From positions 1 through 57,301 of IMG/VR virus record IMGVR_UViG_3300043496_000172: DNA of 57,301 nt, one strand, 5' to 3'. Positions 2,563 through 57,301 of the stretch are shown here, piece after piece. Within the stretch, counting starts at the first letter, position 1. The number at the start of each line of letters is the position of its first letter. The position numbers were made by a program, and so were the translations under genes. The stretch is from a virus. Lineage: Duplodnaviria > Caudoviricetes. The notes beneath the pieces were generated by a model. That model saw only the letters and a program-made list of their open reading frames with translations, made no database searches and had not been told where the DNA came from.

Positions 2563-3111
2563 ATGCCTGAACCGAATGTCACCGTGAAACGTGACTACGT
2601 CGCTGAAATACGACGCCTGGTAGATGAATACCGCAGTCGCCAGGAATACAACGCCGCGTCGGCTGCGATCGAGATCTACAACCAACTTCTCGGCACTGAC
2701 CGGGAGCTGCTGTACGGCTTCCTGGAAGGACAAGCTGTCCTGGCCATCCGAGGTGTGATGACCGCCGCTGATGCTGCGACCCGCTCCTACGCACGGAGCA
2801 ATGGACCACAGTCCGTGTTCTCAGATGCGGCGACCAAGGCGGAAGGAGGAGACCCTGAACCGCTACGACAGGGCTTCCTGCAAGCCTGGTACGTCGTCGA
2901 CAGTAAGTACTCCCGCAAGGAACTACGGAACATGAACTCAGACGACGTCCTGTTTGTGGCCGAACGATACCGGGAACGAGCCCGGGGAGGGCTCCGGGAA
3001 GCTGCCTTCATGGCAGCGCTGGCGAAACAAATCGGACAGCGGATGGTGGGAGAAGTGTTCAACAACGTCCAGCTGGCTGAGCTGCATACCACTGTTACTG
3101 GAAAGATCTGA
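2563..3111 (+). CDS. Hypothetical protein between arrays 1 and 2; candidate RAMP partner
   Basis: AAAGGAAAG RBS before ATG 2563; the TTG at 2503 lies within the array. Confidence 0.8.
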   Translation: MPEPNVTVKRDYVAEIRRLVDEYRSRQEYNAASAAIEIYNQLLGTDRELLYGFLEGQAVLAIRGVMTAADAATRSYARSNGPQSVFSDAATKAEGGDPEPLRQGFLQAWYVVDSKYSRKELRNMNSDDVLFVAERYRERARGGLREAAFMAALAKQIGQRMVGEVFNNVQLAELHTTVTGKI

Positions 3112-3236
3112 CTGACTCGTCGAACCTTGTCCTATCTACTCATCCGACTTGTCAACCCGGTTCCATCCGACGTCTCTTGTCCTGTCCCCACTGCTCCCGA
3201 CGACTACGCAACCCCGGTCACCTCAATCACAAATCC
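3108..3236 (+). ncRNA. Pentamer array 2, about 4 units, directly upstream of the RAMP gene
   Basis: tGAC tcgtC gaacC ttgtC ctatC tactC atc cGAC ttgtC aaccC ggttC catcC GAC gtctC ttgtC ctgtC cccaC tgctC. Confidence 0.7.
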
Positions 3237-3257
3237 TATTAAAGGAGCAACAGAGAA

Positions 3258-4049
3258 ATGGTAGCGAAAAAGTCCAAGACTGAAGCCGAAACTGAAGGCG
3301 GACGAATCTTCCCGAACGGTTACAGCGTCTTCGGTGACTTCGATGCCGAGAGTTACCAGTACAACTACCTGTGCGAACTCACCATCGCCAACCTGGTTGG
3401 CGGCGTACCCACCGACTCGCAGGTGGCCACCGGCTGGTTGAAGTCCAAGCTTCAGGAGCCAGACGACATCCTGCGGGATCTGGTCGCGAAGACGATGCTT
3501 GAGCGCAACATCACCGCCGATGAAGCGACGAGAATCGTCAACGAGCTGAAGAACCTCAACGGATTCAAGCGACTTCTTCAGGATGGTCTCGGACACGAGG
3601 AGGCCGTAGAGAAGCAGCTGATGATTGAGGGTCGCCAGATCAAGGCTGCGTTGAAGGAAGCGGTGTCGGTCGCGGTTGCCGCCGACAAGCTGGACATGAC
3701 TGGTTGGGGCAAGACCCGCAAGTGGCTGTCGACGTACTTCCCGGAGCATGTGTTCGTGGTCGAGACGGAGGTGCCCCTTTTCCAGAAGGATGAGGAAGGC
3801 AACCTGGTCCCGGTGATGGCACCGACGGACACGTTGCAGCAGTTCGTCCACACGCACCGTGGATCCTCGATCCAATACCAGGAGCGCGTGGAAGACGCCG
3901 TCATCCGGTTCACGGTCGTGGCCGACCATCCCTTCAAGGAGAAGGAATGGGCGATGATTTGGACCACGGGGCAGCGTAACGGTCTCGGAGCGTCCCGGTC
4001 GCAGGGCTACGGCACCTACAAGGTGACGCGGTGGGAGCCAACCAAGTGA
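3258..4049 (+). CDS. Stand-alone Cas7/Csm3-like RAMP-superfamily protein
   Basis: N-terminal strand plus GG (ELTIANLVGGVP); IEGRQIKAALKEA resembling IPGSSLKGALR; ERVEDAVIRFTV; C-terminal Gly loop GLGASRSQGYGTYKV; AAAGGAG RBS. Confidence 0.85.
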   Translation: MVAKKSKTEAETEGGRIFPNGYSVFGDFDAESYQYNYLCELTIANLVGGVPTDSQVATGWLKSKLQEPDDILRDLVAKTMLERNITADEATRIVNELKNLNGFKRLLQDGLGHEEAVEKQLMIEGRQIKAALKEAVSVAVAADKLDMTGWGKTRKWLSTYFPEHVFVVETEVPLFQKDEEGNLVPVMAPTDTLQQFVHTHRGSSIQYQERVEDAVIRFTVVADHPFKEKEWAMIWTTGQRNGLGASRSQGYGTYKVTRWEPTK

Positions 4050-5005: not shown

Positions 5006-5329
5006 GTGAACACGAACGAGATAGTGCTACCCGACGTTCTCAACGGCTTCAGCACCCAGGACCTGGTGGAGCTAGGAGCCCAGCTCACCGGTACCGGATT
5101 CACCGGAGTCGAATCCCGAGCCCTCATCGGCATGATCGAGCAGACCGCGAAGCAGGTCACCCTAGCCATGGTACCGCCGCTCCTCGATCAGGTCCGGCGC
5201 ATCAATGAGGCCCGGATGATGACGGTGTTCCAGCAGCTGCGCCTGCTACCGAACCAGTTCGGCTTCATCAGCCGCGAGCGAGTGATGCAAATACTTCAAA
5301 CGGTGTATTCCACGCCACCCAACGTGTAG
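5006..5329 (+). CDS. Hypothetical protein
   Basis: Strong AGGAGG RBS before GTG. Confidence 0.75.
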   Translation: MNTNEIVLPDVLNGFSTQDLVELGAQLTGTGFTGVESRALIGMIEQTAKQVTLAMVPPLLDQVRRINEARMMTVFQQLRLLPNQFGFISRERVMQILQTVYSTPPNV

Positions 5330-5886: not shown

Positions 5887-5893
5887 GTTATCC

Positions 5894-5924
5894 GACCCGG
5901 TCACTGTGTGTGGCCGGGTCTTTC
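5894..5924 (+). terminator. Hairpin, possible terminator or processing site before array 3
   Basis: GACCCGGTCAC/GTGGCCGGGTC stem followed by TTT. Confidence 0.5.
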
Positions 5925-6398
5925 GACACATCGGATCTGATCGGCACAGCCCATACCTCATGACAGGACAGGTCTACGTTGTACGGTCCCTCTCTCTTCC
6001 TATGACTCGACCCCTCTCCGCACGCCTAAACATTTCCGACACCACACCTCACGCCTATACGCTTCCGACGCCACACCCCATGTCAGTGCGACAACTCGGT
6101 ACTGATCACCCTCCCCACATCCTTCGACCTTTCATATCACGTCCCTTCGGCCCGCTGTGACTTCACGTGTCGGATCCCCTCAAGCGACGTTCCAATCCCG
6201 ATCTTCGCGACATATCGTCCCTGGTCCAACCTATTGACGTGTCGGCCCTAACATCCACCCACTCCGTCCCCCTCCGACTGACTTCTCGACGCACATACAC
6301 GCCAACCCAACCCCTCGTCGACTTCTCGACACAACTCCTCCCGCATTGACTTTTCAACTCCCCTCACGTCGACTTCCCATCCCATTTCTGTCCCCGTC
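5924..6398 (+). ncRNA. Pentamer array 3, about 15 units
   Basis: cGAC acatC ggatC tgatC ggcaC agccC atacC tca tGAC ... cGAC ctttC atatC acgtC ccttC ggccC gctg tGAC ttcaC gtgtC ggatC ccctC. Confidence 0.75.
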
Positions 6399-6409
6399 TA
6401 GGAGAAACC

Positions 6410-6793
6410 GTGAAGAAAGACCCACATGCCACCGAACCGAAGGTGGAGCTGAACCACGAAACGTACCGGCTGTATGTCGAGGCACTCGACAACAGTGTGG
6501 CCTGGAAGAAAGAGGCTGAACGGCTTCAGGGCCTGCTGAACGAGGAAATCGGGGACGCCTACGCCGGCACGATCGACGGTCACAAGGTAGTGACACATCG
6601 ACCGATACAGACCTGGCGCATCAACGAGCTGGTCCGCGACTATCCAGAGCTGACTGCGCGCTACGTCGAACAGGTCACTGTGGAGAAGCTCGATATCCAC
6701 GAATTTCGGGCACATCACAAGGAAATCGCGGACAAATACCAGTCACGAAGCTTCCGGAACCTAGGCCCAGGCGAGGAAGTAGATCTAGCATGA
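6410..6793 (+). CDS. Hypothetical protein resembling the C-terminal region of YqaJ-type phage nucleases
   Basis: AGGAG RBS; EIGDAYAGTIDGHKVVT ... KYQSRSFR pattern. Confidence 0.55.
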   Translation: MKKDPHATEPKVELNHETYRLYVEALDNSVAWKKEAERLQGLLNEEIGDAYAGTIDGHKVVTHRPIQTWRINELVRDYPELTARYVEQVTVEKLDIHEFRAHHKEIADKYQSRSFRNLGPGEEVDLA

Positions 6794-7871: not shown

Positions 7872-8249
7872 CGTGCCCGCCCAGCCCGCCACCTGTACGA
7901 CAATGCAGCCGCCGTTCCAGTCACATCACCCGACACATCGCGCCCGGTCACGTCGACGCACCCCTTCTTCTCGACCCTTAGCCTTACCGTCCCACACCGA
8001 CACACCTCGCCAGTTCGAAACCGATCCCTACGACTACTCGCCTTCCATCCCAACTGACTCGCCAACCCGCTCTCCACCCCCACTGACTCGCCAAGTCGGC
8101 TCCACGCCAGGCCACCCGACTATCCGACTCCCGCCTGTTCGACTACCCGCCTCCATCGCCTACTCACTTCCCACCTGTTCGACCGTCCATCGCCGTTCCG
8201 ATCCTGTTCGACCATTCTTCTCGATGCGCACTCAGGTCACTCCCCCTCA
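7869..8249 (+). ncRNA. Pentamer array 4, about 12 units, at the junction of the converging gene blocks
   Basis: cGAC acacC tcgcC agttC gaaaC cgatC cctaC GAC; tGAC tcgcC aagtC ggctC cacgC caggC caccC GAC. Confidence 0.7.
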
Positions 8250-8260
8250 CGCCGAGGCCC

Positions 8261-8557
8261 CTACCGACGGTAGCGGCCTCGGTTTGTGTGTGGTGGAAGG
8301 GTGTCCCAGATAGGAGTCGGAACAGGTTGCGGCCACAGAACCTGTTCCATCATGTCCATGGCCCGACGGTGCGCCCACCACTGATCCCGAGCAGAGACGT
8401 CGAAGGAGACTTCCAGCGTCTGGTTCGCGGGCTCTTCGACTTCGGGACTGTTGAACCACCAGTGCCGGTCACACCACAGGTACATGGCCTCCAGGATCGA
8501 GCTGGAGGCCAGATCTGAGGCCAACACGGTGAACGTGTAGCGACGGTGGCAGGTCAC
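8261..8557 (-). CDS. Hypothetical protein
   Basis: Last ORF of the minus-strand block; 4-nt overlap with 8554-8895. Confidence 0.65.
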   Translation of the reverse strand: MTCHRRYTFTVLASDLASSSILEAMYLWCDRHWWFNSPEVEEPANQTLEVSFDVSARDQWWAHRRAMDMMEQVLWPQPVPTPIWDTLPPHTNRGRYRR

Positions 8558-36099: not shown

Positions 36100-38451
36100 T
36101 TAGTCCTCCATCAATTCGGCGAGCCGCAAGCCCCGGTCTTCCTGAGCCTGCATTTCTCGCAGCTTTGATAGAACGCCTACCGCCAGCGCATCCATATCCA
36201 CGATCGGTACGTCATCCCGGCCGGTGATACCGAAGTTCGGCATCTCGTATGCGGGTGGAATGTCATCCTCTGGATAGACGACGCCGGCTGCTACGAGCGC
36301 GAACTGTTCGTCACCGTCCATCGCGTAGACGGGGAACGCCGGGACGTTAACCGCGAGTGCGGCCGTAAGTTCCAGGTGACCGTCAACTCCTCGCCAGTCG
36401 CCGGAAATGGGAGAACGACGAAGCTTTGCAACTTTTCGGGGGGTGGCATCTGGGACGACAGCTCCGGCAACCCAAATACCGAAAGCATCTTCACCCGCCC
36501 GGACAACCGCCACCTCGTCCCCGGTGTCGTCGTAATGAATCGCTGCTGACGCATATCCCATTCGAATGTCAGCATGCCGGGTGTCCTGGACAATTTTTCC
36601 TACCTTCACCGTGTCACCTTCGGCGGTCACCACGGAGCCTAGGTGGAACGGGGCATACTCCTTGAAACTCTTCGGAGCCAGGACACACGCCTTGTTCGTG
36701 ACATCGCGGTGGCATTCATTCCAGGCAGCGAGGTGGCCGTACACCTGCCCGGCGGCAGTGATTGTCAGCGCTGTCTTCTCTGGCAGCTGGGGGTCCTCGA
36801 ACCAGGTTTTCGACGGCGCCAACGGGAAGTAGGTTTCCGGCTCGGCTCCGTCAGCGTTGTATTCCAGGCTGTGTTCACTCTTCGGGCGCAGGTCAGCTTT
36901 CACTGTTTCATCACTAGGGCCACCGATGCCGAATTTCTTCATGGCCTGCTGGATCCGTTCCTTGATGATCTTCAGCTGCTCCGGGGTGTACTCGGAGGCG
37001 TTGTCGGCGACATTGATATATCCCCATGCAGCTCGGACACGTTCCGCAGTGTCAATGGGATAGCGCTTCTTGTTGTCTCGGTAGCCGGGGTCTGCGTACT
37101 TCACATCCCCATACGGCTCCTGCTTTCCTGCCATAGCGAACTGCTGCCCTTCATTTTCTGGACGATCCCACGGAGCCCGCAGGCTGGAGTCGTTGAACTC
37201 CGCAGCCATCACCTTGTACATGTCACTGATGACGTTACGGATCTTGTTCTTATCGTCTTCAGACACAGAAGGCAGACCACCATGGGCACCAGAAATCAGA
37301 GCAGCCGCCGCATAAATGGCGTGGAAGACGAGGGTCAATTCGCCGTTGACGATGTCGCCTACCGGCATCCGATACGACTGGGTCTGCGTTTCCGGGAGGC
37401 GGGGATCCCGCCAGAGGAACGCTCGGTGGAGCTTAGCGAGATCAGCACCCTCGGCGTTGACCTGAGCCCAGGCTGCGATTCTTTTGACCGCGTCGTCATT
37501 ATCGAAAACGAGATCACGAGGTGCGAGGGCGAGACCCTCCCACCCGGATGGGTTAACCGTGTAAGTTTCGCCTTCGCCCACTGTCGCTGAATGCCCGCAG
37601 CCGCAGCCACCGTTACCACTGATGGCTTCGGGGGTTCCGATGGTGATGGACATGGGATCCATGTCGGGGTCGTCATCGTCCCAGTCTTCATCACCCATGT
37701 TCTTCAACTGCATCCCCTCAAAGGCTGCTGTTGAGACCAAGGTGACGCCGCCGATGACGTACTGGCTGGTGTATTCCCCGCCGTTGGCCGGGTTTACGGA
37801 AGCAACAACGCGACCGCCGGGATCCACGCTGGCCCCGACGATTCCCTGGTCCACCATGTACTGGGCGATCTTCGACTCGGGCACCATGTCTTCGTCGAGC
37901 CAGTCACCCCAACCCCAGGCGTAATCACTGTTGTTGTGATCAGGACCGTAGGTCAGTCCGAGGATCCGGCCGACAGTTACGGCACCTTCGTGGGCTTGGG
38001 CGTCAGCCTTCCGCCACTTCAACGGCAGCGGCAGCGGGCGGTGACTGAACGCTCCGGGTTCGAATACCCGCATGCGTCGAGGCTCGGCAGTGGGAACACC
38101 GATAGGTGCAACAGGTCCCATCCACAGTCGTTTCCCAAGTTGCGGCTGTGATGCGAGGAGCTGAGCAGCAGCTACCAGCGACAGCTCCAACCCAGAGTCG
38201 TGGTCCAGGTCCGCAGAGTGTCCATGCTTCTTCGGTTCCAGCGAGCCGTGACCAGGGGGACCACCGGTCGCCTTCGTATGGAGGATGTTGCATAGTCCCT
38301 CCGGGTTCGTCGGAAAGTACTTGGTGAGCGCACGGACACAGCGCTTGAAGTCGCCAGGTACGTTCCAGCGAATCTTCACCGCGCCCTTACCGGCTAGCCA
38401 GTACCGCTGAAGCGCAATCGGCATCCCGCGTTCCGGGTTCGGGTCCACCAT
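36100..38451 (-). CDS. Capsid maturation protease (multi-domain)
   Basis: RPLPLPL...HEGAVTVGRI, GASVD, TLVSTAAF; C-terminal GHLAAW..CH, GEDAFGIWVAG, SGDWR. Confidence 0.8.
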   Translation of the reverse strand: MVDPNPERGMPIALQRYWLAGKGAVKIRWNVPGDFKRCVRALTKYFPTNPEGLCNILHTKATGGPPGHGSLEPKKHGHSADLDHDSGLELSLVAAAQLLASQPQLGKRLWMGPVAPIGVPTAEPRRMRVFEPGAFSHRPLPLPLKWRKADAQAHEGAVTVGRILGLTYGPDHNNSDYAWGWGDWLDEDMVPESKIAQYMVDQGIVGASVDPGGRVVASVNPANGGEYTSQYVIGGVTLVSTAAFEGMQLKNMGDEDWDDDDPDMDPMSITIGTPEAISGNGGCGCGHSATVGEGETYTVNPSGWEGLALAPRDLVFDNDDAVKRIAAWAQVNAEGADLAKLHRAFLWRDPRLPETQTQSYRMPVGDIVNGELTLVFHAIYAAAALISGAHGGLPSVSEDDKNKIRNVISDMYKVMAAEFNDSSLRAPWDRPENEGQQFAMAGKQEPYGDVKYADPGYRDNKKRYPIDTAERVRAAWGYINVADNASEYTPEQLKIIKERIQQAMKKFGIGGPSDETVKADLRPKSEHSLEYNADGAEPETYFPLAPSKTWFEDPQLPEKTALTITAAGQVYGHLAAWNECHRDVTNKACVLAPKSFKEYAPFHLGSVVTAEGDTVKVGKIVQDTRHADIRMGYASAAIHYDDTGDEVAVVRAGEDAFGIWVAGAVVPDATPRKVAKLRRSPISGDWRGVDGHLELTAALAVNVPAFPVYAMDGDEQFALVAAGVVYPEDDIPPAYEMPNFGITGRDDVPIVDMDALAVGVLSKLREMQAQEDRGLRLAELMED

Positions 38452-39173
38452 TACCGTCCCCCTTCGTTCACGATGACCAGATCACATCGACAGTTGATGA
38501 CTTCGTCAGCGGAGCCCGTCGGGTCACCCGGAAACATGAGCATGTCGTTGCCGACCCGGAATGGCTGGTACAACGGAACAGTGGTGCCGTCTACCGCTCG
38601 GTGCTCGGCTCGGACCCGGTCGTCATGTTCGGTGCGCCAACGCTTCTGTAGAAGTCGGCCAGTGACCCGAGACTGTTCCAAGCCCGCAGCAGTAGTTCCA
38701 GCTCCATAAGCACGGGTGGTCTCGGTGACTGCGATAACTCGTGCGCGATTTGTCCAGCGTTCAGATCCACTCGTTGCAAGAACGGAATCAACGCGTTCTG
38801 CAATGCGAGGCACGTTCTCACCTGAGTTGACTCCATCAGCGATCTCCGCAAAGACGAGGTTGTATACCTCGTCCGGGATTCGCACGAGGAAATTCTGAGT
38901 CTGCGCCAACTGAGCCATAACGAAAGAGTGCCGGGATACCGGTGGCACATCTGTCGCCTCACTCCAGGCGCCCATCGCAATCTGGCCGATGGTGCTCAGA
39001 ATCGTGTCAGTGTCCCAGCTGTCCTGCGCCTGGTACACGCCCGTTGCATCAGGCATGCCGCCCCAGTCCCGGAACGGGGCCAGGACTTTGTCGCGGGCAG
39101 CGTTGATGAACCGGTCGAGCGCTCGCTTCACTACACCGAAAAGGTTCTTCTCATTTTGATCACGGGTCGGCAT
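38451..39173 (-). CDS. MuF/gp7-like minor head protein
   Basis: RARVIAVTE, KRW...DDRVRAEH...DG, FPGDP...EVINCRC. Confidence 0.9.
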   Translation of the reverse strand: MPTRDQNEKNLFGVVKRALDRFINAARDKVLAPFRDWGGMPDATGVYQAQDSWDTDTILSTIGQIAMGAWSEATDVPPVSRHSFVMAQLAQTQNFLVRIPDEVYNLVFAEIADGVNSGENVPRIAERVDSVLATSGSERWTNRARVIAVTETTRAYGAGTTAAGLEQSRVTGRLLQKRWRTEHDDRVRAEHRAVDGTTVPLYQPFRVGNDMLMFPGDPTGSADEVINCRCDLVIVNEGGR

Positions 39174-41070
39174 GAGTGAACCCTCGGTGTAGCGCGGCCA
39201 GGAGTAGGCGAGGCTCATGCTCCAGGCCACGTTCCAGCAGCATGGAGCAGTAGCGGTGCAAGGTAACGGCTAGCTCCTCGTTTTCCTCTGCTTCACCGAG
39301 GTACACGGTCAGGTGATCCCAGGCCCCTTGAAGCAGCTTCGAGGCACCACCGACCGGAATAGCGACCTTGGTGTGCAAGGAATACACCGGAACGTCCGAA
39401 TGGGTTCGGTGATGATTGCCCACCAGCCTCTTCCCGGCCACTTCCAGTGCCCGGATGACAGCAACGTTGAGTACCCGGAACGTGGCATCGTCTACCCCTG
39501 GGCCAGCAGCTGCGGTGATACCCGGTGGCTGGCTGGCGTTACTGGTGATCGGACCACCTGGTGTGGAGATGGCGGAACTATCCTGCGGCATGGGCTCGGG
39601 ACCGGTTGGCTGGATCCCGGTCGGGGGTGCTGGCGGTGGAGGCGGACCCGCTCCAGGTTGCCCGGGCTGGGCAATGACAGTGTTCGCCGGCAGGATCGAC
39701 TCGGAGATACCGGCGGCCTTGCGTACGGCCGGGTTCTGGAACAGGTTCGGGTCCCGCTCCATGAGGGTCCGGATGAATTTCCGGGTGTCTTCTTCCTCGC
39801 TGGGCTTGTCGGTGAGAGCGAAGTCGCCGGCAAGAATGACCGCTTCGTCGGAGATGATGCCTTTCTCGTTCAGGTTGAGGGCATCTTTCAACCGTTCCGG
39901 GCGTACCGTCAGCGGTGCTGTGTCGTACCAGAAGACGTACCGTTCCGGGTCTTCCTTGATGGCCTTCAGCGCTGGACCGAGATACGCATGCGTGAGGGCG
40001 TCACAGATCCGAGTCATGAGAGGCTCGATATGGATCTTGATGTTCGCTTCCTCGACGTGCCAGGCGCTCCAGTGGTTACTGTCCCCCGTGCCGGTAAGGA
40101 TCTCTGGAGCTATATCCATGGCCAGGGCGAACCGTCGGATTGCTTCTGCCCGAAGCTCAAGTGCCTGCTTACTGAGTTCGGAACCGAAGCTGATCAGCTC
40201 GATCTTCCCGAGGGCATCTGCTGGCATCTCTACGAACATGGGCACTACCCCGGCCGCTGTTCCCTCACCCTTGAGGCTTCGGGAACCTGCCTTCATCATC
40301 GCCTGGGTAAGACCCTCGGCTCCGGGGATGGAGACTTCGTTCCCGTCATCTGGAAAAGAAGCTTCCTTCGGAATCGGGACCATGCCAGCGGAAACCAGGC
40401 GGCTGTCAATCTGAGCGAAAACGTAGCGGGTTAGCCGCTCGATCTCCCACAGCATCGGCATCGCAGCCCGGGTCGGGGAATCAGCCCAGAGGCTTCGGCG
40501 AGGATGTGGTGTCCAGACCCGGATGACGATGTCCTTATCAAGATCCAGAACATCCTGCGTTCCATCCGGATACAGCTGATACACATTGCCACGCCAACGT
40601 TTCAGCTCCGAACAGCTGACCACATACCACTGGTCAGCATCCTGATCCCGGACTGCTCCACGCCCCACGATGTAGCAGTCCCCGGCCACCGTCAGGTTGA
40701 TGGCGAGCATCCGCATCGCCTCAGACATCGCCGCCGGGGAACCGAACAGGTTCTCCGCGATCGCAGCGACCTTCGCCTTCTTGGTCTCCTGCTGTACGCG
40801 CCCGTTCTTGTCAACATCAGCGACATATACGCGCACCCGAGAACACGCCGACCCGACCCAGTTCGTCGCGAACCGAAGCTCACCGATGATGTCGTACAGC
40901 CGCCACACTTCCTGCTGCCAGGAATCGTCACCGAACTTGTACGTCTGCCAGCCGAGCCCCTCCAGGTTTCGGATACGGGCAGCAGAAGCAATCAACGGTT
41001 CCAGAATCGACTCGTGGTTTTCCGGCTCCGGTTCGGCAACTGGTGGCTTCGGCCGGCGGAATCCTGCCAT
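39160..41070 (-). CDS. Portal protein
   Basis: WQQEVWRLYDIIGELRF, RVWTPHP, ADSP, LAMDIAPEIL.G, NHWSAW. Confidence 0.9.
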   Translation of the reverse strand: MAGFRRPKPPVAEPEPENHESILEPLIASAARIRNLEGLGWQTYKFGDDSWQQEVWRLYDIIGELRFATNWVGSACSRVRVYVADVDKNGRVQQETKKAKVAAIAENLFGSPAAMSEAMRMLAINLTVAGDCYIVGRGAVRDQDADQWYVVSCSELKRWRGNVYQLYPDGTQDVLDLDKDIVIRVWTPHPRRSLWADSPTRAAMPMLWEIERLTRYVFAQIDSRLVSAGMVPIPKEASFPDDGNEVSIPGAEGLTQAMMKAGSRSLKGEGTAAGVVPMFVEMPADALGKIELISFGSELSKQALELRAEAIRRFALAMDIAPEILTGTGDSNHWSAWHVEEANIKIHIEPLMTRICDALTHAYLGPALKAIKEDPERYVFWYDTAPLTVRPERLKDALNLNEKGIISDEAVILAGDFALTDKPSEEEDTRKFIRTLMERDPNLFQNPAVRKAAGISESILPANTVIAQPGQPGAGPPPPPAPPTGIQPTGPEPMPQDSSAISTPGGPITSNASQPPGITAAAGPGVDDATFRVLNVAVIRALEVAGKRLVGNHHRTHSDVPVYSLHTKVAIPVGGASKLLQGAWDHLTVYLGEAEENEELAVTLHRYCSMLLERGLEHEPRLLLAALHRGFTHADP

Positions 41071-41075
41071 GTGCG

Positions 41076-41366
41076 CTACTCCCTGTCAGCCGCTCGAAGA
41101 ATCAATGCGCACGCCATTGACCCGGCCGGGATAGAGAGCACAGCCAGGAACCAGACGGGGTGCCAGTAATAAACGACAGGAAGCAGGATCGAAAACCACA
41201 TCGACAGGCACCACGGCGCACAGAGAATGAGTTTCGAAATCCAGGCGGAGGTTCCGAAGCGGTTCAGGATGGCGCGACGGAACGGAAGAGTGAGGGCGTC
41301 CTCAGCGATGAGACGGCTCATGCGCGCTGCTGCGAGCGTGGCCGTGATCAAAGCGAGTATAAGCAC
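41076..41366 (-). CDS. DUF1360-like membrane protein
   Basis: ARMSRLIAED...PFR...CAPWCLSMW; typical position before portal. Confidence 0.75.
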   Translation of the reverse strand: MLILALITATLAAARMSRLIAEDALTLPFRRAILNRFGTSAWISKLILCAPWCLSMWFSILLPVVYYWHPVWFLAVLSIPAGSMACALILRAADRE

Positions 41367-41424
41367 GTCTCATACTCTAATGGTTCTTACTGCGCAAGGG
41401 ATACATGCGGAACAGTTTGGACAG

Positions 41425-41454
41425 TTGCCACCGTCTCCGCCCCAGGGGTAGGGT
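41425..41454 (+). promoter_or_regulatory. Putative SigA-type promoter TTGCCA-18-TAGGGT with CCCCAGGGG, pointing into array 5
   Basis: Matches TTGNNN/TANNNT; array starts about 10 nt downstream. Confidence 0.65.
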
Positions 41455-41463
41455 GCAGAGGTT

Positions 41464-42319
41464 CGACCTGACCCTTCTTCTCAGCGTCTACCCGACCCCG
41501 GTCACACCGACTCACCTACCCAGCACACCCCATCCGACCCTGTCAGTCGACTCGCCGGCCCTCCTTCACCTCTGACTAGCCCTCTCTGCTCCAGTCCGAT
41601 CCGTTCGACTCTCCTTTTCCCTGCCATTTCCAACCGCTTCCTACGACTGCCTCTTCCAGTTCGGATCGACCCTGTCAGTCGACACTGTGGCCCATACCCG
41701 CTCGTTGTCCTCTCGCATCTTCCGACCGAGCACTCCACCTCACCACCGTCTCCTCTCACCTATCGATCGACTGCCCTCTTCGCCCCCTTTCCTTCTGACG
41801 ACACGTCTCAACCCCCTCCATGCACACGCCGACTACACCCAGCCTCTCGTATCCCATCTATGCCTATCGACAAATCAGCTCGTATCCATACCCATCCCAT
41901 CGACGAATCAGATCGCCTCGCAGCTGCCCAACCGACACGCCGTGCCGTTCTCCGACCGCTCCGCACTGACATTCCACTTCATCCTCATCTCGGCGCGGTC
42001 CCGATCCGACGGAGCGCATCACCTCGCAACCGTTTCTGACCCGTCCCACCTCTGCTGACTTCCCCGGTCACCCCTGAGCACTTCCATTGACAAACCCGCA
42101 CGTATCAGTCCTCCTCGACTTCGCACGTCATGCTCGCCTCTCGTCACTTCAGCTGACTCTTCTGCCGGCCACTTCCCACGCCAGCTCTCCCGACCTGCCG
42201 TTACGCAACTTCCCTGCCCAGTCCAGCATCCCTGCCGACTTCCCACCGACCTCTCACCTCCGACGACGATGCGATCCCGGTCATCAACTTCCCGCATCGC
42301 CTCGACCACCCAGTCCCTC
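41464..42319 (+). ncRNA. Pentamer array 5, about 28-30 units, antisense to the structural operon
   Basis: 41830-41904: cGAC tacaC ccagC ctctC gtatC ccatC tatgC ctatC GAC aaatC agctC gtatC cataC ccatC ccatC GAC. Confidence 0.8.
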
Positions 42320-44584
42320 TCAACCCAGTCCCCCCCACTGTGGTTGAAGATTCGACAGGTCGTAGTACGACTGATCCAGGTTCCACTCTTGCGAGGAAGG
42401 GCTAGCGATTCTCATGATGCGACGTTCACCGGCCATCAGATGCAGTACGCCGTGAACCATGGCATCCATGCGGTCTGGCGACTCCCGAGTGGACTCGGGA
42501 GCGAAGATGACCATTTCATTTTCGAGTTCATCCCACTCGCCGACGAGGTGGAGTTTTCCTTGCTCACAACGCATGGCAACTGGTTCGGCTCTTGTCCGTT
42601 TGCCATGTTTCGCATGCACAGCTTTCATTGAAGGAGTGCTATGTTCAGGGAACAGTCCGAGGTTCATCGATTCTTTGAAGGCATCCTCCAGAACCTCAGC
42701 CAGATACCGTTTACCAAGGTTCTCTTCATAAACCAGAATGTCAGCGTTCCACTTGGCTACTGCCCGCCACGCTGCAAGAGCTGCTGTTCGACCACTCTGC
42801 TCAACGGAGGCGTCTTCAAGTACATAAATGTCGTTGTTCACGGTCCGCGCGACTACCACGATGCCGAACAGGTCGTCTTCTCCTGTCAGGTTCGGGTCAA
42901 CACCAACCACGGTCGAGATGATGTCCTCGGGGATCACGGTCACCCGGCCTCGGATTATGTCCATCCGTTTGAATAGGCCACCGACACCAAGCTCCAACAG
43001 TTTCCCGTACAGCTCCTGCTGGCCAAGGTCCGTGTCCGCATACCGGATCTTCAGTTCCCGCAGGACATGCGAGGACAGGTTCATCGCGTTGTCGAACGTG
43101 GAACCACCCATCACGTGGATCGTCCCGTCGTCCCGCTTCACCCACTCCTGCAACAGCTTGATCGGTTTCGGGGTAGTGGTGGCGAAGCAGCGAGGATGGT
43201 CGTCGATCAGGTCGGTACGCAAGGAAGGAAGGATCCCCTCATACCAGCTCTCATACGACTTCGGCCATTTGCAGTTATGTACCAGGAGACCGCCCGCGAA
43301 GAACTGCGGAACTCCCTGCACAGTCAGGTCATAGACCGGAACTGGATGGCAGCCCTTGTGCACGGCGACGACGCGCGTCGGCTTGCCGACGTCCGGCGAA
43401 TCGGCCTGCACACAGAGGGGTGCAGTACTTTGCTCGCATACCTGTGCTGAAAAATGTTTCGCCACATTCTGCGCACACCACTGCCCGGGGTTGTCGCTGT
43501 GTCCACATGTTTCGCAGCCCCCGACTCGTTCGATCAGATCGGTCAGCCACCCAGGCAGCGTCGGTTCTACTGATGGCAGTGAGTCTGCGGTGCTCTGAGA
43601 CGGTGAGGCATTCGAGGTTGTCCGGCCGGTTGTCCCAGCGCTTCCCGTTGATGTGGTTGATCTCGTGGTCTGCTGGGATTTCTCCGTAGAGCTTGGCCCA
43701 GAGACTTCGGTGGAGCAGGGATCCGCTGCGGTTGAGGTGGTATCCCATGCGTTTGTTGAAGTACCAGCGTTCGCCGTCCCAGTCGTAGAAGGCTGGCGCT
43801 TCGCTGGGTACTGGTTCTTTTGCGGAAGCCATGTCACCATGGTATCGCCAGGTTGTACCTGATCTGCGCGGATCCAGCCGTGCTCCTCGGTCCATACACG
43901 ATGATTCGGCGTGACTGTGACGGCGGCATCTTCGGTCAGGAGAACCAGAACTTCGGCTGACTTCTCAGTGAGTCCAGCGGATTGGACCCGACGGTAGCCA
44001 TGGAGAGTCGTAACGTAATCCTGCGTAGTAACGCATTCGATCGGAACAACGCCTCGGTCGGTGGCGATAGCGGATCCGTAGGCGATGCAGATCTCGTCTA
44101 CCCAAGCACCCGCAGCGTTGTATCCACGCCCTACGTCTTCGTCATCCGCGCCCTCGGCGTAGATCCTGGAGCCGTTCGGGAACAAGACCATCGGCCTCGG
44201 GGACTGCTTGTACCGGAAGTCGACCCCACGACGGGTAAGTACACGCAGGAGCCCAGCTGGTCCCTCCATACAGATGGTGCGTGTATCCGCGAGCGTTTCC
44301 CCAATCAAGAGCCATTCCGTTGGTTGCTGGTTTCGGTCGAATGGGTGCTGAAGAACTTTCTCTACGAGCCATTCGGCTCCAGCTCGACTCTTTCCCCATC
44401 CTCGGCCGGCGAGTGCGAGTGCAACGAGCCAGTTTCCCGGTGGTGGCACCTGCTCGGGACGTGACACCCACCACCATTCACCTCGGTTGATTTCTTCAAC
44501 GAGTTGGAGGGGCAAGGATTCCAGCCAGTCCAAGCGCTCGCGCTCTGGAAGCAGGGCTACTCGTTGCGCGGCAGATAGGGACAT
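42320..44584 (-). CDS. terL: Terminase large subunit (intein-containing)
   Basis: Walker A AGRGWGKSR, Walker B WVDE, TTTPKP, QELYG, VGVDP, SPDRMDA. Confidence 0.95.
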   Translation of the reverse strand: MSLSAAQRVALLPERERLDWLESLPLQLVEEINRGEWWWVSRPEQVPPPGNWLVALALAGRGWGKSRAGAEWLVEKVLQHPFDRNQQPTEWLLIGETLADTRTICMEGPAGLLRVLTRRGVDFRYKQSPRPMVLFPNGSRIYAEGADDEDVGRGYNAAGAWVDEICIAYGSAIATDRGVVPIECVTTQDYVTTLHGYRRVQSAGLTEKSAEVLVLLTEDAAVTVTPNHRVWTEEHGWIRADQVQPGDTMVTWLPQKNQYPAKRQPSTTGTANAGTSTNAWDTTSTAADPCSTEVSGPSSTEKSQQTTRSTTSTGSAGTTGRTTSNASPSQSTADSLPSVEPTLPGWLTDLIERVGGCETCGHSDNPGQWCAQNVAKHFSAQVCEQSTAPLCVQADSPDVGKPTRVVAVHKGCHPVPVYDLTVQGVPQFFAGGLLVHNCKWPKSYESWYEGILPSLRTDLIDDHPRCFATTTPKPIKLLQEWVKRDDGTIHVMGGSTFDNAMNLSSHVLRELKIRYADTDLGQQELYGKLLELGVGGLFKRMDIIRGRVTVIPEDIISTVVGVDPNLTGEDDLFGIVVVARTVNNDIYVLEDASVEQSGRTAALAAWRAVAKWNADILVYEENLGKRYLAEVLEDAFKESMNLGLFPEHSTPSMKAVHAKHGKRTRAEPVAMRCEQGKLHLVGEWDELENEMVIFAPESTRESPDRMDAMVHGVLHLMAGERRIMRIASPSSQEWNLDQSYYDLSNLQPQWGGLG
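43274..44089 (-). mobile_element. Intein (272 aa) inserted just after Walker B
   Basis: Starts CIAYGSAIAT; block B VTPNHRVW; ends VYDLTV...FFAGGLLVHN followed by +1 Cys. Confidence 0.93.
43329..43832 (-). CDS. HNH homing endonuclease nested out of frame within the intein
   Basis: LLHRSLW...GEIP...EINHINGKRWDNRPDNLECL...H; C-terminal CAEC...YCTPLC. Confidence 0.85.
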   Translation of the reverse strand: MASAKEPVPSEAPAFYDWDGERWYFNKRMGYHLNRSGSLLHRSLWAKLYGEIPADHEINHINGKRWDNRPDNLECLTVSEHRRLTAISRTDAAWVADRSDRTSRGLRNMWTQRQPRAVVCAECGETFFSTGMRAKYCTPLCAGRFAGRRQADARRRRAQGLPSSSGL

Positions 44585-45112: not shown

Positions 45113-45186
45113 GGGTCTATAGCTCAATGGGAACGAGCCCGGAACTTTTTTGACCGGAGATGTGGGTTCAAATCCCACTGGATCCA
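45113..45186 (+). tRNA. tRNA-Lys(TTT)-like with atypical anticodon arm
   Basis: Acceptor GGGTCTA/TGGATCC; D-stem GCTC/GAGC; T-arm GTGGG-TTCAAAT-CCCAC; anticodon loop CTTTTTT; no encoded CCA. Confidence 0.75.
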
Positions 45187-45302
45187 CGAGGCAGGGCGGC
45201 ATGGCCACGAAGAAACTGTGATAAGTCGCAGCATCTTCGACCGATCCGCGAGCGTGTCCCCCGTATACCGGAGCCGCCCTGCTTCACCAGGAAAGGGAAC
45301 CC

Positions 45303-53044: not shown

Positions 53045-54193
53045 ATGTACATGAACCCACGAAAACGTATCGTGCTGTCCACTGCCGCTGTTTCAGCGGC
53101 AGCCCTGATTCTGGGGGCCTGTTTCCTCACGCCAGCCAACGCCAGCGTCACGACACAGACTCAGGTGGCACGAGACAATCTGGCGAACTGTCAACTCCTG
53201 GCCTCGAACTCCACCGGTTCGCAGCTCACCAGAGCTAACCAGTGCATCACTGATCAGAACAAGATCCTGCGACTTCTCGGCGGGTCACCTTCACCTACCC
53301 CTACGCCTCCGGCGACCACTCCCCCCACTGCCAGCCCCACCGCGACCGTGACTCCGACCCCGACCGCGACGACTACTCCTCCTCCGTCCGGTGACTTTCC
53401 GAACGCGGACAACACAGGCGTTCCCGCTGGTACGGTCCTGACTCCATGGGATGGCACGTGCAGCGGTGGCGTTGTGGCGATCACGACCCCGAACCTGCTG
53501 GTAGATGCCCGCAGTTTTCCCTGCAATGTGTCCATCCGGGCCAGCGGTGTTCGGATCACCCGCAGCCGGATCAACGGCTGGATCGACAACACCGACCGGT
53601 CGGGAACCTCGTTCGCGCTGGTCGACTCCGAGGTATCGATCTCCACAGTGGTGGAGCTGACGGTGGTGGGAAACCACGACTTCAGCATGTTGCGGGTTGA
53701 AGTCACCGGCGGAAACCGGGGCGTGTACTGCCAGTGGTCCTGTGACATCCGGGACTCCTGGATTCACGGCCAGCGCATCCAAAGCGTCTGGCACGCTTCA
53801 GCTGTTCGCATGGAACAGCAGCTCACCCTGGTGCACAACACTCTGGTCTGTGACGCACAGCCGGCCAGCGAGGAAGGGACGTGCTCGGCCTCGTTGACGG
53901 GGTACGGCGACTTCGCTCCGGTGCGGGACAACCTGATCCAGGGCAACTACTTCGCTCCGACAGTGTTCGCGGCGTACTGCGCCTACGGCGGTTCCTCGCG
54001 GAACAAGCCGTTCTCGGACGGTGCCATGAACAACCGGTTCATCGATAACGTGTTCGGACGAGGTGACACCACGGTTAGCCAGGACTGTGCAAAATACGGT
54101 CCGGTTGGTGACTATGACCGCTCGAAGCCAGGCAATGTCTGGTCAGGTAACAAGTTCACTGACGGGGTTGTGATCCCGGTACCTGCGTTCTAG
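53045..54193 (+). CDS. Secreted protein with Pro/Thr linker and parallel beta-helix domain
   Basis: Signal peptide ending ANA; PTPT linker; FPNADNTGVP; IRDSWIH, IQGNYF repeats. Confidence 0.75.
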   Translation: MYMNPRKRIVLSTAAVSAAALILGACFLTPANASVTTQTQVARDNLANCQLLASNSTGSQLTRANQCITDQNKILRLLGGSPSPTPTPPATTPPTASPTATVTPTPTATTTPPPSGDFPNADNTGVPAGTVLTPWDGTCSGGVVAITTPNLLVDARSFPCNVSIRASGVRITRSRINGWIDNTDRSGTSFALVDSEVSISTVVELTVVGNHDFSMLRVEVTGGNRGVYCQWSCDIRDSWIHGQRIQSVWHASAVRMEQQLTLVHNTLVCDAQPASEEGTCSASLTGYGDFAPVRDNLIQGNYFAPTVFAAYCAYGGSSRNKPFSDGAMNNRFIDNVFGRGDTTVSQDCAKYGPVGDYDRSKPGNVWSGNKFTDGVVIPVPAF

Positions 54194-56090: not shown

Positions 56091-56114
56091 CCCTCTACTG
56101 TACCCCCCACCCCT
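56046..56114. repeat. Inverted copy of positions 1-69
   Basis: Exact reverse complement. Confidence 0.95.
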
Positions 56115-56125
56115 ACCCTCCACAA
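56097..56125 (-). promoter_or_regulatory. Putative promoter TTGTGG-17-TACAGT
   Basis: Directly upstream of the XRE gene. Confidence 0.6.
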
Positions 56126-56460
56126 GGACTCAGGACACAGGCAGCCAGGACTCAGGACACAGCGCACCTGGCCTGGAATCAAGATCATGACGCGAACATG
56201 ACGCGAATGCTGTCATGAAACCGAAAGTTCTTCCTTTACCGTATACATACTTGATCTTGATTCCTCTTTTCTATACCCCTTTTTCCTAACTCTCAGAGAC
56301 ACAACTGTCATAAATACTAAAAAAAAAACATCAAACCTGGACAAATTGGTACAGGATTCGGACATTTCGAGTGACACTTCGATGACACTTAAACTGTCAC
56401 TGTCCTGGCGAGTGACGCGAACCAGTGACACTTCAGGGTCAAGTAGCCGCGAAACCGTCG
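56126..56460. other. Candidate replication origin: AT-rich tract with short direct repeats
   Basis: GGACTCAGGACACAG x2, CATGACGCGAA x2, TGACACTT x3, AT-rich 56220-56340. Confidence 0.45.
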
Positions 56461-56470
56461 CGAACTTTGT

Positions 56471-56788
56471 CTACTGCTCCGACATCCGGGCCTCGAACTC
56501 GGCCAAAGCTGTCATCGCCTGCGTAACCGCGTGACGTTTCGGGTCTTCCGGCGACAGTTCAGCACTCGTGAGAGATTGATCGAGGCGATACAGCTTCGCG
56601 AGCCGGTCGAGGACGCGGATTCCGGCTTCGATGAACCGGGGGTCAGGTTTCACACTGCCGTCAACATGAGGTTGACACTGGTTCCAGATCTGCTCCAGCC
56701 GCTGAACCAGCAGCGCCCGGACCATCGGCTGAGACCGGGTGACTTCTTCCTCGCCGATTCCGAGGTCGGTCTGCTCCAGGTCTCGCAT
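56471..56788 (-). CDS. Possible terminase small subunit-like protein
   Basis: RLEQIW...DPRFIEAGIRVLDRLAKLYRLD pattern. Confidence 0.5.
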   Translation of the reverse strand: MRDLEQTDLGIGEEEVTRSQPMVRALLVQRLEQIWNQCQPHVDGSVKPDPRFIEAGIRVLDRLAKLYRLDQSLTSAELSPEDPKRHAVTQAMTALAEFEARMSEQ

Positions 56789-57039
56789 CAGGACTCCTGT
56801 AGAAGATGCATATCAACATGCAGTCGTATCCGGGGATGCTCCAGGATTCATGAATCCTGATTCAGGCTAACGGTTAGCCTGTCCCTGAATCAAGACATCG
56901 AAGGGGAGCACTGATACAGGTTAGGTTCACGCACCAGGGCTACAGCTATGCGGTTGCTTGGATCGGTTTCGGTTCGGTTTGCCTGTTGCCTGCGGCTTTT
57001 CCTGTTTCAGGGCTCTTGTGAGCTTTGTCCGTTTCAGGA

Positions 57040-57145
57040 GACATGACTCATAGGTGGGGGATCATGACTCATGATCGTTGATCTTGATGATCAAGATCGT
57101 TGATCATGGATGAGTGATCATGAGTAGTTGATCATGATCATGAGC
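57040..57145. repeat. Low-complexity TCATGA/TGATCA palindrome cluster
   Basis: Dense overlapping GATC and CATG words. Confidence 0.7.
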
Positions 57146-57301
57146 CTGAATGGAGCGCTCGCTCCAGGATTCAGGGCAGGGTGCGGCCTCGGAATCCATG
57201 CTACACCCCCCCCTGGGGATGTGCCAGGAGGGGGGAGAGGTGGTGGGGAGGTTGATTGGGGCTACCTGAGGGGACGGGGGCGGATGGGTCAACGGTTCTG
57301 C

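Follow-up and report, generated by a model that had tools for sequence, protein, structure and literature searches.

Between terL and a DUF1360 gene in the 57,301-nucleotide (nt) phage record IMGVR_UViG_3300043496_000172 (Duplodnaviria; Caudoviricetes), which as a whole is called the window here, lies a long C-rich tract, array 5. What does this tract do, and which of its two strands is used? Our favored answer, to which we give a probability of about 0.7, is that array 5 is a remote vrRNA-like guide array of a soil phage's VIPR-like system, and that this system uses a non-canonical pyrimidine core.

VIPR was first described in 2026 and has been proposed to be the ancestor of the RAMP effectors of CRISPR systems (10.64898/2026.04.26.720920). 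As the text of that preprint describes it, Vipr is a solo, mostly viral RAMP, and RAMPs share little sequence similarity (10.64898/2026.04.26.720920). Its RNA, vrRNA, consists of 9-16 YNNGG repeats and a structured tail; the NN positions pair with double-stranded DNA, with a one-base skip, and the targets are competing mobile elements (10.64898/2026.04.26.720920). Seven types are distinguished, the alternative repeats being NNNGG, YNNNG, and NNNNG, and in some types the arrays are staggered (tail-less) or separated by ribozymes (10.64898/2026.04.26.720920). In the Vipr of phage SUSP1 there is one protomer per repeat, the helical period is six subunits, and D177, W178, and R179 of a loop rich in glycine (the G-loop) read GGY (10.64898/2026.04.26.720927). 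Solo or orphan vrRNAs, found in satellites and in phages of the SUSP1 family, lie away from vipr or in genomes without it and act in trans (10.64898/2026.10.15.759431). Period-5 entropy has also been used to describe 21 clusters with non-canonical cores such as GAC/NN, CAC/NN, WGT/NN, and TGH/NN (10.64898/2026.10.21.760802).

Position and pentad grammar of array 5

Array 5 (41460-42320, plus strand) consists of about 30 units of the form (NNYYC)k, each closed by YGAC. On one side it adjoins terL (42320-44584, minus strand; Terminase_6N 9.6e-16, Terminase_6C 4e-10). On the other side are the DUF1360 gene (41076-41366, minus strand; 26.5 bits against a cutoff of 21) and the portal gene (39160-41070, minus strand), whose Phage_portal match of 29.2 bits is under the gathering score of 39.1. 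These Pfam matches and coordinates bear out an earlier note on this DNA, made from the sequence alone, which had placed the tract between terL and the DUF1360 and portal genes. The bases of 41460-42330 are A145, C392, G139, and T195, so the plus strand is 45% C and 16% G, and the GC skew in 41601-42400 is -0.48 and -0.39. Array 5 is the longest of five C-rich plus-strand tracts in the window and is separated from the RAMP gene described below by 37 kb. Composition and strands thus agree with what the earlier note had said, namely that this is the largest array and that it is oriented like the others, with the flanking genes running the opposite way. The window itself is estimated to be 87% complete, and no close DNA relative of it was found among cultured phages.

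Once the sequences are aligned on YGAC, a C is found every 5 nt and the base preceding it is usually a pyrimidine. In the window, C occupies positions +7, +12, +17, and +22 in 86, 87, 72, and 76% of the cases, and the logos of four other genomes (five genomes in total) have the same period-5 pattern. In array 5, C is found at 102 of the 140 fifth positions counted from each GAC, compared with 243 of 603 positions (40%) elsewhere. This corresponds to a z of 7.1, and none of 2000 within-unit shuffles was as high. The autocorrelation of C at lags 5, 10, and 15 combined gives a z of 4.0 (0 of 500 dinucleotide shuffles as high). The enrichment of GAC itself is modest under a first-order Markov model: the 33 GAC of array 5 (25 CGAC and 8 TGAC) compare with 24.1 expected, and CGAC is expected 13.4 times. 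The motif YGACnnnnCnnnnC occurs 61 times in the 2049 nt of the window arrays and 57 times in the remaining 55252 nt of the plus strand. Its density in the arrays is about 30 per kb; 17 array-free loci, an array-free relative (G003), and the rest of the window have a background of about 0.8-1.0 per kb on each strand. The overall description given by the earlier note is confirmed and its interpretation partly supported; the 5-nt periodicity and the likeness to VIPR and vrRNA had been missed.

The two free positions of the pentad are nearly uniform. Among 1072 pentads, the first has A at a frequency of.30, C.22, G.21, and T.27, and the second has A.25, C.29, G.23, and T.23. In-phase runs are mostly of at most 8 pentads, and a typical unit has 5-7. 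Apart from YGAC and the period-5 C, the units have nothing in common. There is a bias in the pentad that comes first after GAC, with CGACTACCC found 125 times in 37 of 57 sources, suggesting a short tag at the start of the unit. Such a tag can be compared with the 8-nt 5' handle of CRISPR RNAs (crRNAs). A few two-pentad units recur. CCTGTCAGTCGAC is found twice in array 5 (41539-41551 and 41671-41683), CCTGTTCGAC three times in array 3 (8133-8212), and similar units, CCTGTCCGAC and CCTGGCCGAC, are found in the cultured cyanophage Mae-JY09. These recurring units may be a conserved spacer or processing element.

A coding reading of array 5 was rejected since neither the spacing of its GACs nor the insertions and deletions among its relatives are in multiples of 3. 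The usage of NN dinucleotides was also compared with that of codon positions. The best such correlation (r 0.45; reverse complement, positions 1-2) is uninformative because other registers correlate as well or better. Tandem Repeats Finder reported within array 5 only an 11-nt repeat of 2.2 copies and no CRISPR-like repeats. No Rfam family reached its gathering score in array 5, and up to an E-value of 1 there was only a chance microRNA match. Neither strand of array 5 folds significantly compared with shuffled sequences (z -0.44 and -0.93); the plus strand, with the former value, has -53.9 kcal/mol per 300 nt.

A Cas7-like gene linked to the arrays

The RAMP gene, P0001 (3258-4049, plus strand), encodes a 263-amino-acid (aa) Vipr-like protein with the C-terminal G-loop GLGASRSQGYG. 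Its AlphaFold2 model, made from 39 sequences, has a predicted local distance difference test score (pLDDT) of 78.2 and a predicted template modeling score (pTM) of 0.73. Foldseek gives 58 PDB matches at E <= 1e-3, the best at 4.3e-7, and those listed are chains of the Cas7 family: type VII Cas7, Csm3, Cmr/Cmr4, and gRAMP. The best structural matches of P0001 are thus the Cas7 backbone proteins of class 1 CRISPR systems (Csm3/Cmr4 and type VII Cas7), with moderate template modeling scores of 0.37-0.54. In BFVD there are three significant viral matches (E 3e-10 to 1e-7), one of them named as a RAMP superfamily protein. By sequence, P0001 has no match in Pfam, PHROG, or PDB. Of 1778 candidates scored, 1204 are homologues at E <= 1e-3, and a Pfam family is found in none of them. 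G242, G244, R247, and G252 of the G-loop are invariant in the family, and we take the loop to have the form of the RAMP glycine-rich loop. The RAMP gene had already been called in the earlier note, and the Cas7-like fold of the model agrees with that call. Judged by modeled fold and G-loop, P0001 is a solo RAMP in a viral, non-CRISPR context.

Upstream of P0001 on the same strand is a gene for a 182-aa, all-helical protein (2563-3111). Of 56 loci that carry a RAMP homologue, 27 have a homologue of this gene upstream, likewise on the RAMP gene's strand. Its AlphaFold2 model has a pLDDT of 86.7, with no fold match in PDB (best E 1.6) and no match in Pfam or PHROG. This gene is a candidate vap-like partner.

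Both genes are surrounded by plus-strand arrays. Array 1 (2285-2550), in which 34 of 40 fifth positions are C, lies upstream of the accessory gene, and array 1b (3110-3257; 14 of 14) fills the interval from the accessory stop codon to the RAMP ribosome-binding site. Array 2 (5990-6400; 48 of 59) comes after a T-run hairpin (about 5893-5925) and extends as far as the ribosome-binding site of a gene whose start is at 6410. Array 3 (7900-8262; 35 of 47) is closed by a plus-strand hairpin with a T-run (about 8251-8292). Pentad display and fifth-position C confirm that array 5 has the same grammar as these RAMP-adjacent arrays, as had been proposed. A further C-rich stretch at 53200-53400 (around 53300) was rejected as a sixth array; it is a Pro/Thr linker within a gene.

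The arrays go with the gene and with the strand that it occupies. Across the 56 IMG/VR loci, YGACnnnnCnnnnC has 1187 sense and 166 antisense matches up to 1.5 kb from the gene, and at least 5 sense matches are present in 55 of the 56 loci. Two loci (L077 and L100) have few matches on either strand. A start codon was obtained for 47 of the 48 loci that include 2.5 kb or more of upstream sequence, and in 39 of these 47 an array ends at most 60 nt from it, leaving no room for a separate antisense promoter. In G000 and in three complete close relatives (G006, G007, and G008) the arrays flank the RAMP gene on the gene's own strand. A more distant genome (G002; 45% identity, 97% complete) has the gene and its flanking arrays both on the minus strand, together with one array (376-1350) that is oriented the other way. 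Both a RAMP homologue and arrays are missing from G003 (89% complete). A 28%-identical homologue, annotated as a hypothetical protein, is found in the cultured Microcystis phage Mae-JY09 (PP395641.1). At 37713-38976 of this genome (2953-4216 of locus L112) lie this homologue and, directly after it, a C-rich array of about 400 nt. Many of its units are exactly 33 nt long, that is, six NNNNC pentads and GAC, and the array is closed by a GC-rich hairpin.

The remote array and its promoter-like site in relatives

Thirty-one loci were found by their portal protein. A C-rich array between terL and DUF1360 is present in seven of them (L002, L003, L004, L006, L008, L015, and L016), which have about 80% portal identity and an interval of about 370-610 base pairs (bp) compared with 953 bp in the window. 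No other relative of the 80% clade has a locus that spans the interval, and in each of the seven the grammar is intact. The array is also present in L007, where the locus is cut before terL. The interval is about 210 bp in L012 and L013 and 30-100 bp in relatives with at most 70% portal identity. In G002 (L024, 4390-5655) it holds two unrelated opposite-strand open reading frames (ORFs) of 153 and 136 aa and no array. Because ORFs stand there in place of the array, the junction looks like an insertion hot spot. The nearly identical L002, L003, and L016 differ from each other by insertions and deletions of whole units that are not multiples of 3, which argues for a non-coding array with a fast turnover.

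The earlier note had proposed comparing this interval in relatives with and without the RAMP gene. Among the relatives compared, no array-bearing one was found that demonstrably lacks the gene. It is present in all three complete genomes with a remote array. No RAMP gene is seen in two array-bearing fragments (69% and 50% complete); about 40 kb separate the gene (about 10.6 kb) from the interval (about 51 kb) in G006, so in such fragments the gene may lie off the contig.

A promoter-like site (41417-41454, plus strand) leads into array 5. TTGCCA (41425-41430) is followed by an 18-nt spacer and by TAGGGT (41449-41454), and the first GAC (41465-41467) comes 10 nt past TAGGGT. These are exactly the coordinates implied by the earlier note. 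The -10 element TAGGGT fits what we take to be the actinobacterial TANNNT form. There is an alternative, ancestral -35 element, TTGGAC, at 41417-41422; an insertion in the window displaces it and TTGCCA occupies the -35 position. TTGGAC-N16/17-TAGGGT-N6-GAC is conserved in L002, L003, L004, L006, L007, L008, and L015 (and in L016 in one comparison), although the array sequences cannot be aligned between clades. This conserved -35/-10 pair, pointing into the C-rich strand in seven relatives, supports the view that array 5 has its own promoter. Since the first GAC comes 6 nt after the -10 element in the relatives, GAC may mark the 5' start of units, whereas the earlier note had expected products to end at YGAC. 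The palindrome that the earlier note had pointed out in the spacer, CCCCAGGGG at 41440-41448, is present in the window and is not conserved; the relatives have GGGGAGGGG, and the conserved block is AGGGGTAGGGTG.

Exact CCCC[AT]GGGG sites occur five times in the window (4971, 41440, 44634, 50370, and 57210), always between genes. In several cases the motif falls in the spacer of a promoter-like site of the form TTGnnn-N17/18-TAnnnT; one of these lies upstream of the gene at 5006. When one mismatch is permitted, such sites are not enriched (23 versus 28 expected). They may be a shared promoter or operator element.

On the other strand, the DUF1360 gene starts with GTG, and 7 nt upstream of this codon is TAGAGT (41374-41379, minus strand). 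The region containing it, TACTCTAA, is invariant in all eight aligned sequences. TAGAGT is possibly a leaderless-type promoter that would restart the virion operon after array 5.

Some other features of the window were observed. The product of terL is 754 aa long and carries an intein-like insert, with an Intein_splicing match (1.3e-6, residues 206-437) under the Pfam cutoff; the terL ORF of the relative L004 is 494 aa and the insert is absent. A single tRNA-Lys (anticodon TTT) is found at 45113-45187, just downstream of the divergent region adjoining terL. The right end of the window (56100-57301) is AT-poorer and repeat-rich, with a G-rich terminal stretch. It holds AGGACAC repeats (56125-56162), GACACTTCGAGT repeats (56361-56390), and an array built on GATCAT (57060-57143). 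This stretch may be an origin, an end region, or a regulatory region.

A proposed VIPR-like guide array and its alternatives

The system that we favor would consist of the Cas7-like RAMP (3258-4049), the helical accessory gene (2563-3111), and the five C-rich arrays. Each unit is a run of pentads that combine a free NN pair with a constrained YYC, and is closed by YGAC, where processing would take place. By analogy with VIPR, one RAMP protomer would bind each pentad and sequester the constrained trinucleotide. The NN dinucleotides would then be free to pair, with gaps, with target DNA of a competing mobile element, and silencing would follow. Array 5 would be transcribed on the plus, C-rich strand from its own promoter with the -10 element TAGGGT, antisense to the virion operon, and would add about 30 units for the RAMP protein in trans.

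This reading draws on known systems in several respects. Like the type II VIPR of Escherichia phage SUSP1 and of a P. fulva prophage, as the preprint text presents them, the system has a phage-borne solo RAMP with a G-loop and no CRISPR locus, a small candidate accessory gene, and long intergenic flanks built of pentanucleotide repeats, in each of which two positions are hypervariable and the other three constrained. The arrays are on the gene's strand in both; in the SUSP1 sequence, YNNGG repeats flank the 195-aa vipr gene on its own strand. The period of 5 with a non-GGY core beside a Vipr-like fold is as in the non-canonical VIPR arrays (10.64898/2026.10.21.760802). Like the solo vrRNAs (10.64898/2026.10.15.759431), array 5 is a vrRNA-like array away from a RAMP gene; unlike those described in that text, it shares its genome with the RAMP gene, has about 30 units, and lies antisense within the virion operon.

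The relationship to class 1 CRISPR systems is more distant. One protomer per fixed number of nucleotides is common to both, proposed here by analogy. Unlike those systems, there are no direct repeats or spacers, and the period is 5 and not 6. In particular, the near-identical direct repeats of at least 20 nt, separated by unique spacers, that make up a CRISPR array are absent. Cas6, Cas5, Cas10, and Cas1 were not identified among the 19 window ORFs scanned, a scan that was not exhaustive. Tandem short RNA units that bind one protein many times are also known from the ToxI arrays of type III toxin-antitoxin systems and from CsrB-type sponges. Those units are near-identical repeats or GGA motifs in hairpins, whereas the units here are all different, unstructured, and 5-nt periodic.

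A number of observations weigh against the VIPR-like reading. On the gene's strand the core is YYC and not GGY, NNNGG, YNNNG, or NNNNG, and a YYC core with GAC punctuation is not among the cores named in the texts of the VIPR preprints, whose figures or supplements may list it. Units have 5-7 pentads and YGAC instead of the 9-16 repeats described for type II, and the conserved structured (pseudoknotted) tail of that type is not found here. The profile comparison of the P0001 family with SUSP1-type Vipr by hhalign is not significant (probability 2.4%, E 0.02, 130 columns). The grammar is noisy: the phase is perfect in only 79 of 359 units from five genomes, and the unit length modulo 5 is 3 in 113 of them and 4 in 112. 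In three of the 56 loci (L094, L096, and L101) the antisense motif matches equal or outnumber the sense ones. The E. coli-type consensus promoter scan did not call the TTGCCA/TAGGGT site of the earlier note, and the same scan found no consensus promoters at arrays 1-3. Transcription of the late operon would yield the G-rich complement of array 5 as well. The record's sequence is found in soil-metagenome DNA runs only (six runs listed, all DNA). Finally, a search for gapped targets with 77 guides in 531 kb of relatives, allowing skips of 0-2 nt, found no more matches than did control guides whose NN order had been shuffled, in a database that is far too small for the purpose; the longest clean guides specify only 14 bases, which by our estimate would yield chance matches by the hundreds across the whole collection.

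Further differences concern the proteins. P0001 has 263 aa compared with about 195 aa in SUSP1 Vipr, and tblastn gave no SUSP1 match to it. The accessory gene, unlike that of type II VIPR, is upstream and has a helical fold without a match; function has been tested in SUSP1 only, according to the preprint text. Since the profile match is not significant, the kinship to Vipr rests on fold and architecture. That non-significant alignment nevertheless lines up the G-loops, with A245-S246-R247 here opposite D177-W178-R179 of SUSP1. The G-reading residues would thus not be conserved, which would fit a protein that has lost the reading of G and kept a pyrimidine pocket.

Alternatively, the functional RNA could be the G-rich minus strand, with GRRNN pentads and GTC punctuation, and the copy from array 5 could come from late read-through between terL and portal. 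All VIPR repeat cores given in the preprint texts (GGY, NNNGG, YNNNG, and NNNNG) carry G, and in the complement of the logo the constrained bases begin with a G followed by a purine. Within a minus-strand operon, moreover, array 5 would need no dedicated promoter. We nevertheless consider this explanation unlikely and favor the C-rich strand. It is the C-rich version that follows the strand of the RAMP gene in the 56 loci and abuts its start codon, just as the SUSP1 vrRNAs run in the direction of vipr. At array 5 the conserved -35/-10 pair is directed into the C-rich strand, and the terminator after array 3 is on the plus strand. In addition, D177 and W178, the readers of G1 and G2 in SUSP1, are opposite A245 and S246 in the non-significant hhalign alignment.

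Another explanation is that array 5 is a copy of the RAMP-side arrays that is decaying or has no function, or a DNA-level feature, and that it landed in a permissive insertion hot spot between terL and DUF1360, where it has stayed with no role. The interval does vary (30-100 bp, 370-610 bp, or 953 bp, with unrelated ORFs in G002), and the phase fidelity of array 5 is the lowest of the five arrays (73% versus 74-100%). A decaying copy, however, does not agree with a grammar kept intact in all seven relatives of the 80% clade that cover the interval, with the conserved promoter-like site, with a turnover by whole units instead of random decay, or with the fact that this array is the largest in the genome, and we regard it as improbable. 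It is also conceivable that the C-rich RNA acts without the RAMP, either as a rut-like, YC-rich region on which Rho loads or as a sponge or decoy that takes up an RNase or RNA-binding protein of the host. Rho prefers unstructured C-rich RNA, and the plus strand, with YC dinucleotides every 5 nt, folds weakly. This would leave unexplained the strict 5-nt phase that is reset at GAC, the nearly uniform NN positions, and the tight linkage to a Cas7-like gene in 56 loci, and it has very little probability in our view. T7-type primase sites (GTC), Chi-like sites, an R-loop zone, and an anti-Shine-Dalgarno sponge were considered as further ideas and dropped given the period-5 phase and the RAMP linkage.

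Going beyond the VIPR-like reading, one may tentatively propose a separate, abundant VIPR-like lineage, and we hold this to be a possibility with the odds against it. With more than 1200 metagenome proteins and one cultured cyanophage, this lineage would have an NN/YYC code and tagged units of about six pentads. Each unit would be opened by a tag made of GAC and the first pentad, such as TACCC. By analogy, six pentads would equal one turn of the six-subunit filament of SUSP1 Vipr. As guides with only 10-14 specified bases, the units would have to act combinatorially. Convergent transcription could set the timing of array 5, with early plus-strand guides being neutralized late by the G-rich complement in the late mRNA.

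The recognition code of VIPR is of interest as a programmable DNA-binding platform. If a second lineage with another trinucleotide, tagged short units, and no tail is real, the protein-RNA decoding half of the system is evolvable. Such a lineage would be a natural test of the contacts that set repeat specificity and would widen the design space, and the Microcystis phage Mae-JY09 offers a cultured entry point for experiments on the system. Because array 5 is remote from its RAMP gene, annotation pipelines confined to the surroundings of the effector gene will miss arrays of this kind. Guide arrays may be scattered through a phage genome under their own promoter-like sites, even inside a structural operon.

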